The notes: a model not told the origin generated them from the letters alone. Positions 1-22,625 are shown, counted from the stretch's first letter. The stretch is DNA of 64,000 bases from Capsulimonadaceae bacterium (GCA_965277885.1 CBDIDS010000003.1:3019205-3083204), one strand, 5' to 3'. Program-made: numbers and translations.

Positions 1-1111
1 TTTGCACCTTGCCGATGGTCGGCGGATTCGAGCAGGGGAACTCATCGGAACTGACTTCACGCTGCTGACTGTCGCCAAAGAAGAAATTCGGGCCGTTCCC
101 GCCCGCGCGGAATTTAATGCCGTCGAGCCGGTCTTTGCCATTACAACTGAAAGCGGGCGTAGGATTGTCCGTAACAGTCAGCACCCACTGTGGGCGGCAA
201 ACGGAGTGATGCGCTGGGGCAAAAACTACGATACCGTTCAAGTGCGCGGCTGGACACCGCTGGAAAACATCGCGGCGGGCGATCTGGTCGCCGTTCCTGA
301 AAGCCTGCCGGCCTTCGGTTCGCCCGTGCCGCTGCCGGAAGACGAGATCAAGCTGCTGGCTTATCTCATCGGTGACGGCAGCTTCACCCAGCCTGCGGTC
401 CGCTTCAGCCAGCAGGACAATGTGCAGCTTGCCGAATTCAAAGAGTGCGTCGCGCGGACACGGTGCCGTATGATTCAGCACAACAAGTACGACTGGAGAA
501 TTGTCGGCAAGCGCGGACGTGTTGCCGCCGGACAGGACAGCAACAATGACGTCATGAACCTGCTCCGTCGGCATGGCCTGATGCGGACGCACTCACGCGA
601 CAAGCGTATCCCTCCGGCGATCTTCCAGCTTCCGCGCGAGCAGCTTTGTTTGTTCCTGTCGCGGCTGTTCGCGACCGATGGCTGGGCGTCCTGCGGCCCG
701 GAGCGTCCGGGAAACCGGCTGCCCCGCACGGAGATCGGTTTCTGCTCGGCGTCGGAAGGACTGGTGCGCGACATTCAAGAGCTGCTGCTGAAGCTCGGCA
801 TTGTCTCGCGTCTTTCCGCGAAGGCAAACGTCCATGCCTGGACTTTAGCCCTCCATGTCGCCTCGGAGATCATCAAGTTTTCCGACCAAGTCGGTATCTT
901 CGGCAAAGAAGATGCCGTAGCGCGAGTCCGTCAGGTCGCCGAACGCGCCCTTGCCGTGCGGCCAAACCGAGGGGAATGGCGGCACCGGAACGCGCCGCTG
1001 GGGATGCGCTGGGAAAAAGTCAAGGCTGTCATGCCGGCGGGCATTGAAGCGACGATCGCGATTGAAGTGCCGGATTACCACACGTTCTTGTCTATGTTCT
1101 GGGAACACAAC
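1..1111 (+). other. Intein (Hint splicing domain plus double-motif LAGLIDADG homing endonuclease) inserted in the DnaA Walker-A loop; first few codons outside window
   Basis: Block-B-like [20 protein letters not shown] motifs [11 protein letters not shown] (from nt 353) and LFATDGWAS. Terminal [19 protein letters not shown] (Asn codon 1109-1111) directly followed by Thr of THLVHAIG. Confidence 0.8.
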
Positions 1112-2115
1112 ACGCATTTGGTGCATGCCATCGGGCATCAGATACGCCTCGCGCTGCCGTCGGCGCGGGTGGCGTATGTCAGCGGAGAAATGTTTACGAA
1201 CCATTATGTGGCGGCGATCCGGGACAAGCGGACGGAAGATTTTCGGCGGGCGTACCGGAACGTGGACGTGTGGCTTGTTGACGACATTCAGATGCTGGCG
1301 TCCAAAGAGCAGACCAAAGAAGAGTTCTTTCACACGTTCAATGCCCTGCACCAGATGAACAAGCAGATTGTCTTGACGTCGGACCGCCCCCCGCGCGAGC
1401 TGCGGGCGATGGACGACCGGCTGCGCTCCCGCTTTGAGTGCGGCCTGGTCGCCGACATCACCGCGCCGGAGCTGGAAATGCGTCAGGCCATTCTCCAAAA
1501 GAAGGCTTTGCTGGACGACCTTGCCATTCCCGAAGAAGTCATCGCGTTCATGGCGAACTTGATCCAAAGCAACATTCGGGCATTAGAAGGGGCGCTGATC
1601 AAGCTGATGGCGTATGCGTCGCTGATCCACAGCCCCGTCACCAAGCAGCTCGCCAGCGATGTTCTCAGCGGCTATTATGTCGAGCGGATGGCCCCGCGCG
1701 AGGCGGCATCGGCCCACCCGGAAGACCATGAATTCGCGTTCCAGTCCCCCGAAGCCGCCGCGCGTTCCACCCAGTCGCTCCCGGCCTCCAGCGCAGGCGG
1801 GCCGGGCGTAGACGGCGTGATCGAAGCCGTTGCCCGGCAAATGGGAGTCACGCGCGAGATGATTGTCGCCGGCGGCGGGCGCAGCAACCGGGCGACCCGG
1901 CTGCACGGCGATGCCAATTTCGCCCGCAGGTCGCCATGTACCTCTTGAAAGAGATGGGCGGCGTGCCGCTGACGACGCTTGCGGCAACGTTCGGCCTCAA
2001 GAGCCACACGGCGGTGGTTCATGCCCACGGACGCCTGCAAAAAGAGCTTGACTCCGACCCGCAGATTTTGTCCTTGATCAGCAAGATAAAGCAGGAACTT
2101 GAGCGGGGGAGTTAA
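1..2115 (+). CDS. dnaA: Chromosomal replication initiator DnaA (5' end outside window; interrupted by an intein; last ~60 codons lie in a different frame)
   Basis: After the intein the frame-2 ORF reads THLVHAIG...[12 protein letters not shown]...[10 protein letters not shown]...LRSRFECGL...[10 protein letters not shown] (DnaA AAA+ domain III). Frame 1 from ~1927 reads [33 protein letters not shown]...ELERGS with stop TAA 2113-2115 (DnaA domain IV). Confidence 0.85.
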
Positions 2116-2125
2116 GAGACCTATT

Positions 2126-2176
2126 GCCTTGCTTCGTAACAAGTTACTTCGCAGGGTCCTTCCTAAAGGAAGGATG
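2126..2176. repeat. Degenerate half-copy related to MITE-like family A (ccttgcttcg...cagggtccttcc-taaa-ggaagga)
   Basis: Shares ccttgcttcg / cagg(g)gtcct(c/t)cc / gg(g/a)agga blocks with the arms at 37403-37445 and 4370-4422. Followed by GAGGAGGTG and the ATG at 2187. Confidence 0.35.
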
Positions 2177-2186
2177 AGGAGGTGTA

Positions 2187-2676
2187 ATGAACGAAGACCT
2201 TGCCTTTCAAGTCAAGCTTTACGCTTCAGGTAGACGCGAGACCGTTCGGGAAAAGGAACTTGCTCATCTACTGCGCCAGGAACCGGAAGAAGATCGGTAC
2301 AAAATCATCCAGGATTGCCTGCAAATCAGCCATCTTCTGGGCCTTCTTTTTGCCCGAAAGTGCCTCTCGTCCCAAGTATTTCAAGGCGATTTTACTCGAA
2401 GGGATTGAAGTTGCTGATGCTCATAGCATCCAATTCTGGCTGAAATGTACGGTTGCTCCTTTAGGCATGAAGCGTGTGCTGCATATATTGGAAGAGGCGG
2501 TCAAGGTCAATCCAAGGGGAGTAGATAAAATTCTTTATCATCTCCCGGCTTACCTTTCTCCAACGGCATCAAGTGCAATGTATCGCATTTACCAGCTCAG
2601 GAAGGCACTGGAAACGCAGTCTAATCTTCCCTTTAGAGAAGACTTTGCGAAGCAATGTGGTAGGTTCCCTATGTGA
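2187..2676 (+). CDS. Hypothetical protein, apparently split across two frames (2187-2408 frame 3, then about 2350-2676 frame 1)
   Basis: Strong SD GAGGAGG 5 nt before ATG 2187. The first ORF looks protein-like to ...ISHLLGLL and the second frame looks protein-like from ...PKYFKAILLEGIEVADAHSIQFWLK. The junction coincides with T5 run 2347-2351. Visibly lower G+C than neighbours. No family recognised. Confidence 0.4.
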
Positions 2677-2804
2677 CATAAGCGATGTGACACTGTGACT
2701 CAATGTGACATAACTTGGGAAATTGTGACACAAGCCGAAACGCGCTGTGACATAACTCGGCTTATGTCACAGTGTCACAATCAGTGTCACAGCGCACTGT
2801 CACA
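2672..2804. repeat. Array of ten 7-bp boxes: six TGTGAC(A/T) on the + strand followed by four TGTCACA (the reverse complement)
   Basis: Boxes at 2672, 2686, 2694, 2704, 2724, 2746 (TGTGACA/T) and 2765, 2773, 2785, 2798 (TGTCACA). The central 11-bp inverted repeat ctgtgacataa/ttatgtcacag (2745-2755 / 2762-2772) marks the orientation switch. Confidence 0.9.
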
Positions 2805-2839
2805 ATTCCCTGTTTTTGCGGGTTGCGGCCTCTGTTTGG

Positions 2840-2985
2840 GGACTCACGCGCACAGCCGCCGCACGGAGTCCGCACACCGATTTTGTCAATCCGCACGCCC
2901 CGCGCAATGAGTCCGCACTGCCGGGCGCACGAAAAATCGGCGTCCCCGCACAGCCGTAACACGTTCGGGCGCACACCGATTCGGG
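2840..2985. repeat. Cluster of about eight (T/G)C(C)GCAC motifs, several as GAGTCCGCAC
   Basis: cgcgcacag, ccgccgcacgg, gagtccgcacacc, aatccgcacgcc, gagtccgcactgc, gggcgcacgaa, tccccgcacagc and gggcgcacacc, read directly within ~145 bp of non-coding DNA. Confidence 0.7.
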
Positions 2986-3013
2986 CCGCGAAACGTCGGC
3001 GAAACAGATTTTT

Positions 3014-3042
3014 GAGTCACACTGAGTCACACGAGAGTCACA
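3014..3042 (+). repeat. Three direct GAGTCACA boxes abutting an AT-rich stretch
   Basis: GAGTCACA at 3014-3021, 3024-3031 and 3035-3042, immediately followed by tctatactactattattacttaagaatttactcttatgtagaattaaaag. Confidence 0.85.
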
Positions 3043-3142
3043 TCTATACTACTATTATTACTTAAGAATTTACTCTTATGTAGAATTAAAAGACTCCGGA
3101 AGGAAGCCGAAATGCAGGCCAAATCTTCATTCAAAGTAAGTT

Positions 3143-19964: not shown

Positions 19965-22625
19965 CTACGTTAGCCCGTCATAATTGTCCAGAACATATTG
20001 AATGCTTTGCGAGGCGTCTATCCGAGCCCCCTGCGCCCAAAACAGGGCGAACTGCTCCTCGCCGAGCGCCGCACGGCTTTGGGCGAGCGTTGCCCAGGGG
20101 TCGAAACCGAGGCCGAGCGTGACCATTTCTCCTTCCCGCGCCGCCTCGGAAGCGGCTTGAAGGATGCAGACTTCAGCGTGTCTGCCTTCCACCCCGGCGA
20201 TTTCCGCAAGCTGCGTCAGCGTAGTAGCAGTCTGCTGCTTGCTGCGAAGCGTCCGCTGCGCTTCCAGGCTGTCCCGGAAATAGGGCTTGGCCTGTGCGTA
20301 CTGCCCCTGCTGGAAGAGCAGATCGCCTAAATTGTGCAGCGTCGCCGCGCTCCCGGCGGCGTCGTACAACTCCCGGTATTCTGCCAGCGCCCGGCGGTAC
20401 AGGTCTTCCGCCCCGGCGTAGTCGCCCTGCCCCAGCGCCAGAACTCCCATGCTGTTGAGCATCCGGGCGCTGTTGGCGCGGTCCCCCAGCCCCCGGTACT
20501 GGCCGAGGCTTTCCTGCCCATATCGCTCGGCCTCGGCATACTGCTTTTGCCCCTCGGCAACGATGCACAGGTTGCCGAGGGCGCGGGCGATGCCGTGCGG
20601 ATTTTCGCAGCGCTGCTGAAGCGCCAAATCCCGCAGGTGGTACGCACGGGCTGTATCGTAGTCTCCGCAGCACCAGGCCAGCATGCCTGCCCCGCTAAGA
20701 ACCTTCCCCAGAACCGCGTCTTCGCTGCTGATCTCCGCAAGGGCCGCTTCCAGCCGGCTTCGGCCTTCGGACAGGTAAGAGCGCCCGTACCAGAAGCGGG
20801 ACAATGCCCCGGCGAGGCGCGGCAGGGTGCCGTCGCGTATCTCCTGAGCAAACGCCAGCGCGGCCCGCAGGTTTTCCATGTCGCATTCCAGCGTGTTCAG
20901 CCACAGCACCTGGCTTGCCCCCAGCAAATTGGGCTCGGCTTCTTCGGCGAGGCTTACAAAGAAGTCGCGGTGCTTTCGGCGCAGGCCGTCCCGCTCGTCC
21001 GGCGATTCCGCCAGCTTGCCGGCGGTATACGAATGGATGCTTTGGAGCAGGCGGTAGCGTACCGGGCCGCCGTCCGGCGTCTCGACCACGATCAGCGACT
21101 TTGCCGCGAGGTGGGACAGCCCTTCCAAAACTTCCCAGTCTTCGACTTCCCCCCCCGCGCAGACCGCTTCGGCAGCGCCTAATGACCAGTCGCCATGGAA
21201 CACCGACAAGCGCCGCAGCAAACACTGCTCGGCGGGCGACAGCAGCTCATACGACCAGTCTACCAGCGCTCTTAATGTCTGCTGACGCGGCAGCGCCGTC
21301 CGTGAGCCGCCGGTCAGGAGCCGGAAGCGGTCGTTGAGGCGCCCGTCAATCTGCTCCGGGGTCAAGACTTTGACCCGCGCCGCCGCAAGCTCTAACGCCA
21401 GCGGGATGCCGTCGAGCCGGGTGCAGACCGACGCCACGGCGGCGGCGTTGCCGCTGCTCAGCCGGAACTGGGGAAGGGCGGCGGTCGCCCGCTCGACAAA
21501 CAGGCGCACCGAGTCGCAGCCGCCCAGCGCTTCGAGCGTCCGGGCATCGCCGGGCGGCGGCAGGCCGAGCGGCGGCAGGGGCAGGACCGCCTCGCCGCCG
21601 ATGCCTAAAGCTTCCCGGCTGGTCGCCAGTACGGACAGCTTGGGACAGGACTTCAGAAGCGCTTCGGTCAAACGGGCCACGGCGTCAATCAGATGCTCGC
21701 AGTTGTCTAAAATTAAAAGCAGCGGCTGCGGGCGCAGGGCCTCCAGCAGCGTTTGGCGCAGCCGCCCGGCATCTTCCCGCAGGCCGAGGACGCCTGCGAT
21801 TTCCTGCTCAATAAGCTCCGGGTCGGACAGCGCGGCCATCTCCACCAGCCAGGTTCCGCCGGGATAGTCCTCCCGCACGTCGGCGGCAAGCTGCAATGCC
21901 AGCCGGGTCTTGCCCGTTCCGCCCGTCCCCACAAGCGTCACCAGCCGCGCCGCCGCCAGCTTTTCCCGCGCCGCCGCCCGCTCGGCGTCCCGCCCGATAA
22001 AGGAAGTCAGCGCGGCGGGCAGGTTGTGCGGGAACAGGTCGGGCAGGCGCAGCGGGGGGAACCCGGCGGGCAGGCCGGGCGCAGACAATTCCCAAATCTC
22101 CGACGCCTGCGTGAAGCCTTTAAGCGCGTGCTGTCCTAAAAATCGCAGGGAAACGCCGGGCGGCAGCGCGTCCGGCGCCAGTTTCGCCGCCGTGTCCGAC
22201 AGCAGGGTCTGGCCGCCGTGCGCCGCCGCCAGCAGCCGGGCGGTCCGGCTCAGAGCCGCGCCGAAATAGTCGCCGTCCCGCCGCTCCGCCGGCCCGGTGT
22301 GCAGGGCCAGCCGCACTCGGAGCGCCCCGCTGTTGTCCAGTCCCCAGGAGGCCGCCGCCAGCGCGGTTTGGGCGGAAACCGCGGCTTGGAAGGCATCACC
22401 GGGAGAATGAAACGCGGCGTGGAACGCATCCCCGACTGTTTTAAAGATTTCGCCCCCGGCGTCTTCAATCGCCTGCCGCACGAGCGCGTCATGCCGTGCC
22501 AGCGCCCCCGACATGGCATCGGGCTGCGCTTCCCACAACGGCGTACTGCCTTCGATGTCGGAAAACAAAAATGTCAGCGTCGCAGTTGTCTCAGCGTCCG
22601 GCATGGGTGACTTGTTCGGTTTCAT
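19965..22625 (-). CDS. Class III adenylate/guanylate cyclase domain fused to a STAND (NB-ARC-like) ATPase and TPR repeats
   Basis: LTFLFSDIEGSTPLWE...FKTVGDAFHAAF...LHTGPAERRDGDYFG (cyclase). LVTLVGTGGTGKTRLALQLA (P-loop). LLILDNCEHL. C-terminal TPR-like repeats (LGNL..., LNSMGVLAL..., LHNLGDLLF...). Confidence 0.9.
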   Translation of the reverse strand: MKPNKSPMPDAETTATLTFLFSDIEGSTPLWEAQPDAMSGALARHDALVRQAIEDAGGEIFKTVGDAFHAAFHSPGDAFQAAVSAQTALAAASWGLDNSGALRVRLALHTGPAERRDGDYFGAALSRTARLLAAAHGGQTLLSDTAAKLAPDALPPGVSLRFLGQHALKGFTQASEIWELSAPGLPAGFPPLRLPDLFPHNLPAALTSFIGRDAERAAAREKLAAARLVTLVGTGGTGKTRLALQLAADVREDYPGGTWLVEMAALSDPELIEQEIAGVLGLREDAGRLRQTLLEALRPQPLLLILDNCEHLIDAVARLTEALLKSCPKLSVLATSREALGIGGEAVLPLPPLGLPPPGDARTLEALGGCDSVRLFVERATAALPQFRLSSGNAAAVASVCTRLDGIPLALELAAARVKVLTPEQIDGRLNDRFRLLTGGSRTALPRQQTLRALVDWSYELLSPAEQCLLRRLSVFHGDWSLGAAEAVCAGGEVEDWEVLEGLSHLAAKSLIVVETPDGGPVRYRLLQSIHSYTAGKLAESPDERDGLRRKHRDFFVSLAEEAEPNLLGASQVLWLNTLECDMENLRAALAFAQEIRDGTLPRLAGALSRFWYGRSYLSEGRSRLEAALAEISSEDAVLGKVLSGAGMLAWCCGDYDTARAYHLRDLALQQRCENPHGIARALGNLCIVAEGQKQYAEAERYGQESLGQYRGLGDRANSARMLNSMGVLALGQGDYAGAEDLYRRALAEYRELYDAAGSAATLHNLGDLLFQQGQYAQAKPYFRDSLEAQRTLRSKQQTATTLTQLAEIAGVEGRHAEVCILQAASEAAREGEMVTLGLGFDPWATLAQSRAALGEEQFALFWAQGARIDASQSIQYVLDNYDGLT

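Follow-up and report, generated by a model that had tools for sequence, protein, structure and literature searches.

The locus analysed here poses the question of whether a bacterial dnaA gene can harbor a mobile intein inside the very loop with which its product binds ATP, and if so, where that intein came from and what it does there. Inteins cluster in replisome proteins (DnaB, DnaE, DnaX, DnaG, gyrase, RNR, MCM and RFC), and DnaA, the bacterial initiator, is a gap in this list of hosts in the literature searched. The window, by which we mean the whole 64,000-nt stretch of Capsulimonadaceae DNA (GCA_965277885.1 CBDIDS010000003.1:3019205-3083204), starts within a reading frame that runs on into dnaA. 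An earlier note, made from the sequence alone, had read the first 1,111 nt as about 370 amino acids that are not DnaA, namely an intein with a LAGLIDADG endonuclease placed between the Walker-A Lys and Thr, with Thr as the +1 nucleophile, and it had proposed that protein splicing would gate replication initiation. We put a probability of roughly 0.9 on the reading that dnaA carries a class 1 homing intein (a Hint splicing domain plus a two-motif LAGLIDADG endonuclease) in its ATP-binding loop, that the element homes, and that it probably entered dnaA once from a family of P-loop inteins. This is a known kind of element in a new host, DnaA, and it involves no new mechanism.

Results

Nucleotides 2-1948 of the window form a single open reading frame in frame 2 of the plus strand, the strand on which all features below lie. 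Its first 370 codons (nt 2-1111) are indeed not DnaA and correspond to residues 8-377 of a 377-aa intein; DnaA takes over in frame at THLVHAIG, from nt 1112 or residue 371 of the window protein onward, just where the earlier note had placed the intein's terminus. No stop codon interrupts the frame ahead of nt 1112, so the refuting case named in the earlier note, a separate gene with a stop of its own, does not arise. The C-extein (nt 1112-2115) holds the rest of AAA+ domain III, the linker and the domain IV helix-turn-helix. Its first codon, ACG (nt 1112-1114; junction DNA AACAAC^ACGCAT, where ^ here and below marks an insertion point or splice junction), encodes the Walker-A Thr of DnaA, which would also be the +1 nucleophile, and the Walker B motif VWLVDDIQ follows within domain III at nt 1268-1291. 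Pfam Bac_DnaA matches residues 370-484 of the window protein (E 7.5e-44), entering the profile at position 47 of 162, and Bac_DnaA_C is matched in the C-extein as well; in full-length relatives, the Bac_DnaA match is split around LAGLIDADG_3. In an NCBIfam search, TIGR00362 matches from model position 151 (E 2.3e-75), with a score below the model's cut-off for the sole reason that the window protein is truncated and interrupted. The host passes as a bacterial DnaA by its AAA+ domain with Walker A and B, by its domain IV helix-turn-helix and by its location, since the gene order of dnaA, a cluster of DnaA-box-like repeats, recF and dciA is that of a canonical dnaA-oriC-recF-dciA origin region. 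Thirty further open reading frames of the window are ordinary chromosomal genes in Pfam, with no second intein among them, and tRNA and Rfam scans of the window gave no matches. Downstream of the dnaA C-extein lies a high-depth repeat (nt 2116-2233) that has no other copy in the window.

As assembled, this dnaA is frameshifted. The window reads GCCCGCAGGTCGCC where relatives have GCCCG(G/T)CA(G/A)GT(G/C)GC(G/C), and the one base missing after nt 1925-1927 breaks the gene into two reading frames, 2..1948 and 1936..2115, and separates domain IV from the rest. Taken at face value, such a split would make the intein-bearing dnaA a dead gene with no bearing on replication, a reading to which we give very little credence. 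In two public runs, X1 and X2, the entire contig depth at the site has an extra base: an extra G after nt 1925 makes up 80.5 of 130.7 and 70.6 of 84.8 depth, respectively, on a contig otherwise identical to the window, and the rest of the depth has an extra T after nt 1926. As all of the read depth has the additional base, we conclude that the source assembly has an error in its consensus here and that the gene is intact. A G dropped from a GG pair is also what a typical consensus indel looks like, dnaA is intact in 30 of 30 relatives, and the surrounding locus is the canonical origin region described above.

The part of the gene that lies upstream of the window can be recovered from relatives and from reads. 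A search of 5.8 billion proteins yielded, among the matches listed, about 30 clusters of intein-bearing DnaA proteins of 829-1000 aa, in the domain order DnaA_N, Bac_DnaA, LAGLIDADG_3, Bac_DnaA, Bac_DnaA_C. The best relative, P0001, is 95% identical to the window protein, and the two inteins alone are 94% identical. The assemblies behind these clusters come from ENA, NCBI, JGI and Logan, and two of them are complete chromosomes (3.96 and 4.14 Mb). In 30 of 30 clusters the junctions read PLFLYG.PGLGK^CVAASE(Y/F)LHLADGRR...TFWEHN^TH(L/A).HAIGH. Given the GLGK^CVAASEY junction of the relatives, all that the window lacks of the intein is its first seven residues, CVAASEY; the N-extein likewise lies upstream. 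Runs X1 and X2 contain contigs identical to nt 1-1315 of the window at a depth of 135-145x, and a 1447-nt contig of X2 extends 132 nt upstream of the window start. This contig aligns without gaps to the related locus L004, with a set of listed substitutions that gives back nt 1-42 of the window exactly, and when 10 of the 11 upstream substitutions are applied the reconstruction reads ...NPLFLYGPPGLGK^CVAASEY up to the start of the window. In this same-strain read contig, then, the upstream extension suggested in the earlier note leads to a DnaA N-terminal region that ends in GLGK and is followed by Cys.

The closest relatives of the intein outside DnaA sit in phage terminases and DnaC-like genes, and one might wonder whether the insertion is an assembly chimera, for instance a terminase intein from a phage misjoined to dnaA. 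We see practically no chance of this: unitigs span both intein junctions at a depth equal to that of the flanks, identical junctions recur in the 30 clusters of independent assemblies, complete chromosomes included, and the frame is kept such that excision gives a perfect Walker A.

The precise point of insertion is shown by an intein-free allele, P0032 (582 aa), whose extein is 96% identical to that of the window and whose GLGK-THL P-loop is uninterrupted. The neighbors of its locus, L003, are those of the window locus, namely recF, dciA and a gene for a membrane protein of 515 aa. In DNA, the empty site of L003 reads GGCAAA^ACGCAC, or at greater length ...CCCGGACTCGGCAAA^ACGCACCTGGTTCAC..., where the window has ...AACAAC^ACGCAT. 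Excision of the 377 aa restores the host motif exactly as it stands in P0032 and in Bacillus subtilis DnaA (8btg), and in an ungapped alignment the insertion point is K157^T158 of the latter. The alignment with GLGK^THL of B. subtilis DnaA thus places the insertion between the Walker-A Lys and Thr. The site, the role proposed for Thr+1 and the existence of empty alleles in relatives all agree with what the earlier note had read or looked for. The note named P-loops a classic niche for inteins; in the literature, Lys^Thr is termed the "classic" position of inteins in P-loops, Thr serving as the nucleophile (PMC5050341).

The intein itself has the layout of a splicing domain interrupted by an endonuclease. 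Assignment of nt 2-1111 to an intein draws on its continuity with DnaA in one reading frame, on the P0001 intein and on NCBIfam models of intein-containing hosts. An N-terminal splicing (Hint) lobe (intein residues 8-110, nt 2-310), all beta up to about residue 106 in a predicted structure, includes block B (nt 155-193), which aligns to TgnH of the DnaB mini-intein 4o1r and has an invariant His and an Asn instead of the usual Thr of TxxH. The putative LAGLIDADG homing-endonuclease domain (residues ~111-336, nt 311-988) contains two motifs, LLAYLIGDG within nt 347-385 and LFATDGW within nt 644-691, each with its catalytic Asp present; D132 of the first is nearly invariant in the family, and D233, G234 and W235 of the second are invariant. 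The C-terminal splicing lobe (nt 989-1111) has blocks F and G, with the penultimate His and the terminal Asn, and ends in FLSMFWEHN. Across alignment A1, in which the host proteins of the inteins are DnaA, DnaC-like proteins and terminases, the invariant residues are N65 and H68 of block B, E362-V363-P364 and F373-W374-E375-H376-N377; C1 is nearly invariant, and the +1 residue is always Thr or Ser. Cys1 is present in 30 of 30 DnaA-intein clusters and in the reconstruction from the X2 contig. The block-B-like motif and the two acidic LAGLIDADG motifs are where the earlier note had read them, and the splicing residues Cys1, block-B His, penultimate His, terminal Asn and Thr+1 are all present. 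There are two departures from consensus, Asn for the block-B Thr (NSQH, family-wide) and Ala for the block-F Asp.

Pfam LAGLIDADG_3 matches the window protein (E 1.3e-10) and is the only Pfam hit in the intein part, there being no match to the Pfam Hint or Intein_splicing models. The best match to a curated model is NCBIfam PRK07773, an intein-containing DnaB helicase (intein residues 3-312, E 3.4e-35), followed by weaker matches to NCBIfam models of intein-containing GyrA, RecA, Tes and RNR. A PDB sequence search of the window protein found weak matches (4o1r at E 0.017). In view of the missing Pfam Hint hit and the weak PDB matches, we relied on the NCBIfam intein-host models, on relatives and on structure prediction. 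Of the profile evidence that the earlier note had hoped for, the endonuclease part was obtained directly, and the Hint part was obtained from the NCBIfam models and the predicted fold and not from Pfam. An AlphaFold2 model built on A1 (pLDDT 82, pTM 0.70) is rich in beta structure at both ends and alpha/beta in between; the PDB structures that match it best are TliVMA (E 1.9e-17), PhoVMA, PI-SceI and PI-PfuI, all ranking before the free LAGLIDADG enzymes I-DmoI and I-Tsp061I. The intein is thus predicted to have the Hint fold, and its middle part, with two helices that bear catalytic acidic residues in an alpha/beta fold, is predicted to be a two-motif monomeric LAGLIDADG homing endonuclease.

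The residue set is that of a class 1 intein, in which Cys1 would form a thioester, Thr+1 would carry out transesterification and Asn would cyclize. Assignment to class 3, which is defined by the absence of a nucleophile at position 1 and by a WCT triplet of block B Trp, block F Cys and block G Thr (PMC5050341), was considered and rejected: Cys1 is present, the triplet is absent, and position 4 of block F is Ala and position 5 of block G is Glu. Judging from these conserved residues, dnaA would be translated as a precursor of ~960 aa with a split ATP-binding loop, which would therefore be unable to act as an initiator. Splicing would begin with an N-S acyl shift at Cys1 and proceed by attack of Thr+1 on the thioester; Asn377, aided by His376, would then cyclize to release the intein, and an O-N shift would leave a native GLGK-THL peptide and a normal DnaA.

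Several lines of evidence suggest that the element moves between alleles. On a neighbor-joining tree of 101 C-exteins (no support values), 31 intein-bearing alleles are interleaved with intein-free ones, and at least nine intein-positive/intein-negative sister pairs are seen, many at very short extein distances, such that close relatives are polymorphic for presence and absence at one exact site. Intein and extein identities show a moderate correlation (r = 0.56), and much of the inheritance has thus been vertical. The inteins of P0001 and P0003 are 94% identical and their exteins 83%, the intein of P0020 is more alike than its extein in comparison with nearly all other clusters, and divergence between the window and the related locus L001 is mosaic. 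When the window is compared with L001 and with L004, the endonuclease domain gives dN/dS values of 0.075 and 0.114, respectively, against 0.05-0.06 for the splicing lobe and 0.03-0.05 for the extein; by these substitution ratios, the endonuclease domain is under purifying selection in the window lineage. Elsewhere the endonuclease is decaying: deletions are found in 10 of 30 clusters (inteins of 263-341 aa), with all splicing blocks kept, and the two shortened inteins compared in full, P0024 and P0028, have lost the first LAGLIDADG region and have intact splicing blocks. In the relative P0016, whose intein is of full length, Asn takes the place of the first catalytic Asp. Taken together, the interleaving, the excess of intein over extein similarity, the low dN/dS and the endonuclease decay describe a textbook homing cycle of invasion, fixation, decay, and loss or re-invasion. 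In such a cycle, the endonuclease would cut intein-free dnaA at GGCAAA^ACGCAC, and repair would copy the intein in; that it cleaves the empty allele site-specifically is indirectly suggested by its dN/dS and by the patchy distribution. Homing of this kind would account for the patchy occurrence of the intein in close relatives, for purifying selection on its endonuclease in this lineage, and for endonuclease decay with retention of splicing elsewhere.

It is also conceivable that the intein is by now immobile and simply inherited, having invaded once in an ancestor and been precisely lost many times since, with an endonuclease that is inactive or kept for structural reasons. The endonuclease deletions, the substituted Asp of P0016, the correlation between intein and extein identities and the monophyly of the DnaA inteins (below) would all fit such a history. 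We nonetheless find it rather unlikely. In the window lineage the endonuclease domain has a dN/dS of 0.075-0.114 and both catalytic Asp residues, the sister pairs with and without intein are many and their extein distances very short, and there are pairs and patches in which inteins are closer than exteins. Precise loss from an essential P-loop would, moreover, generally require recombination with an empty allele anyway.

To place the element more broadly, we consider its distribution within and outside DnaA. When one genome per GTDB species was scanned with the intein alignment, 11 species turned out to carry the intein in DnaA. Each is represented by an Armatimonadota MAG labelled Armatimonadales or Capsulimonadaceae, with two complete chromosomes (OZ255718.1 and OZ241338.1) among them; runs with related sequence include lichen metagenomes. 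The same intein family (48-55% identity, ends CVAASE...FWEHN) has two further kinds of host: DnaC-like loaders, interrupted at GK^THL, and the large subunits of terminases on bacterial and viral contigs, interrupted at GK^T/S. When 1.84 billion representatives at 50% identity were searched with a profile, 492 clusters reached E <= 1e-30, and among the best 150 of the 492 there is only one DnaA (P0020), most being in terminase-type xHxxGK^C...EHN^T/S contexts. On a neighbor-joining tree of the inteins (no support values), those of DnaA form one clade, sister to the DnaC-like group and nested within the terminase inteins. We infer that the intein most likely entered dnaA a single time and then spread within the clade; a plausible route of entry is ectopic homing out of an AAA+ gene of a phage or other element in which GK^THL is also present. 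The likely source would be the P-loop inteins of phage terminases and DnaC-like loaders, with the common GK^THL target helping the transfer. The GC content of the intein (0.606) matches that of the host (0.618-0.629), and its entry into dnaA was therefore not recent.

Discussion

Having found that the intein splits the ATP-binding loop of an essential initiator, an obvious question is whether the cell makes use of it. The proposal that splicing gates initiation holds in a trivial sense, as the P-loop of the precursor is broken; its stronger form, that splicing is regulated, found no support in our analysis. One could imagine that the host has domesticated the intein, using it as a conditional switch whose splicing responds to a signal (redox state by way of Cys1, temperature, desiccation, DNA or a nucleotide) and so sets the amount of active DnaA, and with it replication initiation, after translation, and that the intein is kept for this benefit. 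Its position makes the precursor necessarily inactive, its GC content (0.61 vs 0.62) suggests long residence, and conditional splicing is documented for the P-loop inteins of DnaB and RadA (PMC6195587, PMC5238726 and PMC5790916). The retention of splicing blocks in lineages with a decayed endonuclease might seem to point the same way, but it is expected of any intein in an essential gene and hence says nothing about benefit. Very close relatives such as P0032, with 96% extein identity, do without the intein, the endonuclease is under purifying selection as in a selfish mobile element, and the +1 residue is Thr, such that the C+1 cysteine used for the disulfide trap of other systems is missing. 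We therefore hold domestication to be improbable. The broader idea, that replication initiation in Armatimonadota is under post-translational control through a pool of inactive DnaA precursor whose splicing rate is set by a signal, strikes us as slightly more doubtful still; candidate signals would be redox acting at Cys1, moisture or temperature on the surfaces of bark and lichens, or the binding of ATP or DNA to the split AAA+ domain, and such control would be why the intein persists even with a decayed endonuclease.

A homing intein in DnaA resembles several known systems and differs from each of them. The inteins of phage terminases, such as TerL1-a of mycobacteriophages (Kelley et al. 2016, PMC5050341), likewise follow the invariant Lys of Walker A and precede a Thr that serves as nucleophile, and terminase-hosted inteins from viral contigs and metagenomes are 51-55% identical to the one described here, share the ends CVAASE...FWEHN and are class 1 with LAGLIDADG. 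Their host, however, is a phage packaging ATPase and not an essential cellular replication initiator, and the DnaA inteins form a clade of their own that is limited to Armatimonadota. Closer still are inteins in DnaC/IstB-like loaders, for example in a Rubrobacter MAG (MBA2693261.1), which are the nearest sisters in the intein tree (52-53% identity) and interrupt a paralogous AAA+ ATPase of the initiator/loader clade at the same GK^THL target. Here too the host is another protein, and its genes seem to belong to phages or other elements (PHROG DnaC-like loader, E 2.5e-70). We found no description of GK^THL inteins in DnaC-like loaders in the literature searched.

Among cellular replication proteins, the P-loop intein of DnaB (site b; M. 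smegmatis DnaBi1, and PRK07773 of M. tuberculosis) also splits a replication ATPase after the Walker-A GK, and conditional (redox) splicing of DnaBi1 is documented (PMC6195587). Its host is a RecA-fold helicase rather than an AAA+ initiator, and its sequence is much more distant, streptomycete DnaB-b inteins being 30-37% identical. Inteins at site a of archaeal MCM and at site a of the RFC small subunit occupy the P-loops of AAA+ replication proteins, as laid out in the main text of PMC4760082, but they belong to another domain of life and to other hosts; the comparison made here concerns the P-loop site and the kind of host protein. In predicted architecture, the closest counterparts are PI-SceI, PI-PfuI and TliVMA/PhoVMA, which combine Hint and LAGLIDADG and are the best structural matches of our model (E 2e-17 to 1e-9, TM 0.5-0.6). 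These differ in sequence (11-17% identity), in their hosts (V-ATPase and RNR), in having extra DNA-recognition regions of their own and in being longer (~430-540 aa).

The survey by Novikova (PMC4760082) puts P-loop inteins of DnaB, MCM and RFC at its center, and DnaA is absent from its main text and from its table of the top 15 hosts; its supplementary tables may still hold rare entries. In the literature searched we found no earlier description of a DnaA intein, in line with the earlier note's statement that DnaA is not commonly catalogued as a host, and nothing relevant on inteins of Armatimonadota. Among the NCBIfam hits there was no model for an intein-containing DnaA; such "exception" models exist for GyrA, Tes and RtcB. 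The gap at the bacterial initiator is now filled by a natural case, in ~30 clusters of which two are on complete chromosomes. Because intein-positive, intein-negative and endonuclease-decayed alleles occur in one clade, they offer a comparison set for asking whether P-loop inteins are selfish or modulate an essential process. The family as a whole spans phage terminase, DnaC-like loader and DnaA, always at GK^T(H)L, which suggests a route by which P-loop inteins pass between unrelated ATPases. The case also adds to the known repertoire a Cys1/Thr+1 intein and a predicted LAGLIDADG enzyme with a defined target in dnaA. A more practical consequence concerns annotation: as the interrupted, window-truncated protein scores below the TIGR00362 cut-off, annotation pipelines may under-call DnaA proteins of this kind.

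Possible recombination, and decay, among intein alleles

Divergence between the intein of the window (nt 1-1111) and the corresponding allele at L001, the locus of a relative, is distributed as a mosaic along the sequence. Stretches at nt 181-360, 661-720 and 961-1110 carry only 1-3 mismatches per 60 nt, whereas those adjoining them carry 9-13 per 60 nt. Synonymous divergence between the same two alleles is 0.017 in the C-terminal splicing lobe and 0.44-0.49 in the remaining intein. Together, the mosaic and the low synonymous divergence of the C-terminal lobe suggest that intein alleles have recombined with each other.

Endonuclease domains have decayed in several relatives (P0024, P0028, P0030, P0026 and P0016, at loci L014, L012 and L009). 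The first LAGLIDADG region is gone from the inteins of P0024 and P0028, and in P0026 an EGPSEGQ low-complexity repeat stands in its place. OZ255718.1, a complete-chromosome MAG, has Asn for the first catalytic Asp (IGNGG). The family to which the DnaA intein belongs also occupies sites other than P-loops (L052; P0199, P0214, P0218, P0259 and P0275; P0166, P0178, P0189 and P0222). One such group is inserted as ...GNASGR|C...HN|TF in putative large phage proteins, and another reads ...RF|C...EHN|SGKH.

The dnaA reading frame and its downstream region

Within dnaA, window 1925-1928 reads GCCCGCAGG where all relatives have GCCCGGCAGG, one base fewer in the window, and this loss shifts the reading frame ahead of the domain IV helix-turn-helix. 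Because all same-strain public read contigs contain the extra base, the loss most probably reflects a consensus error in the assembly. In contigs from two public sequencing runs, X1 and X2, the variable linker between DnaA domains III and IV (window 1747-1831) has 12 positions that disagree with the window, whereas the intein region is identical. This linker also carries indels in relatives, such as AVREHSHRE in P0001, the best intein-bearing DnaA relative.

Between dnaA and recF, where the window has no dnaN, the interval at 2672-3100 resembles oriC. Nine TGTGACA/TGTCACA boxes lie within nt 2672-2805, with only 3 in the rest of the 64 kb; three copies of AGTCACA follow at nt 3015-3042, and the sequence then turns AT-rich at about nt 3040-3100. 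The dnaA stop codon is separated from the box cluster by a segment of about 570 nt (window 2117-2690) with a low GC content of 0.47. Neither of the related loci, L001 and L003, has this segment, and its ORFs at 2187-2408 and 2200-2676 gave no match in Pfam or PHROG. Window 2116-2233 appears to be a dispersed repeat in this lineage: contig depth there is 3000-6000x in X1 and X2 vs about 130x in the flanks, and nt 2127-2183 match other sites in L001 and L003 in either orientation. There is no second copy within the 64-kb window.

Directly downstream of recF, window 4423-5037 matches Pfam DciA (E 7e-20), and the lineage therefore has a DciA-type helicase-loader gene at this locus, whereas in other organisms DnaC-like genes host sister inteins. 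Further along, the minus strand encodes an 886-aa protein (window 19965-22625) that has an adenylate/guanylate cyclase domain together with a STAND/NB-ARC-type NTPase and TPR repeats.
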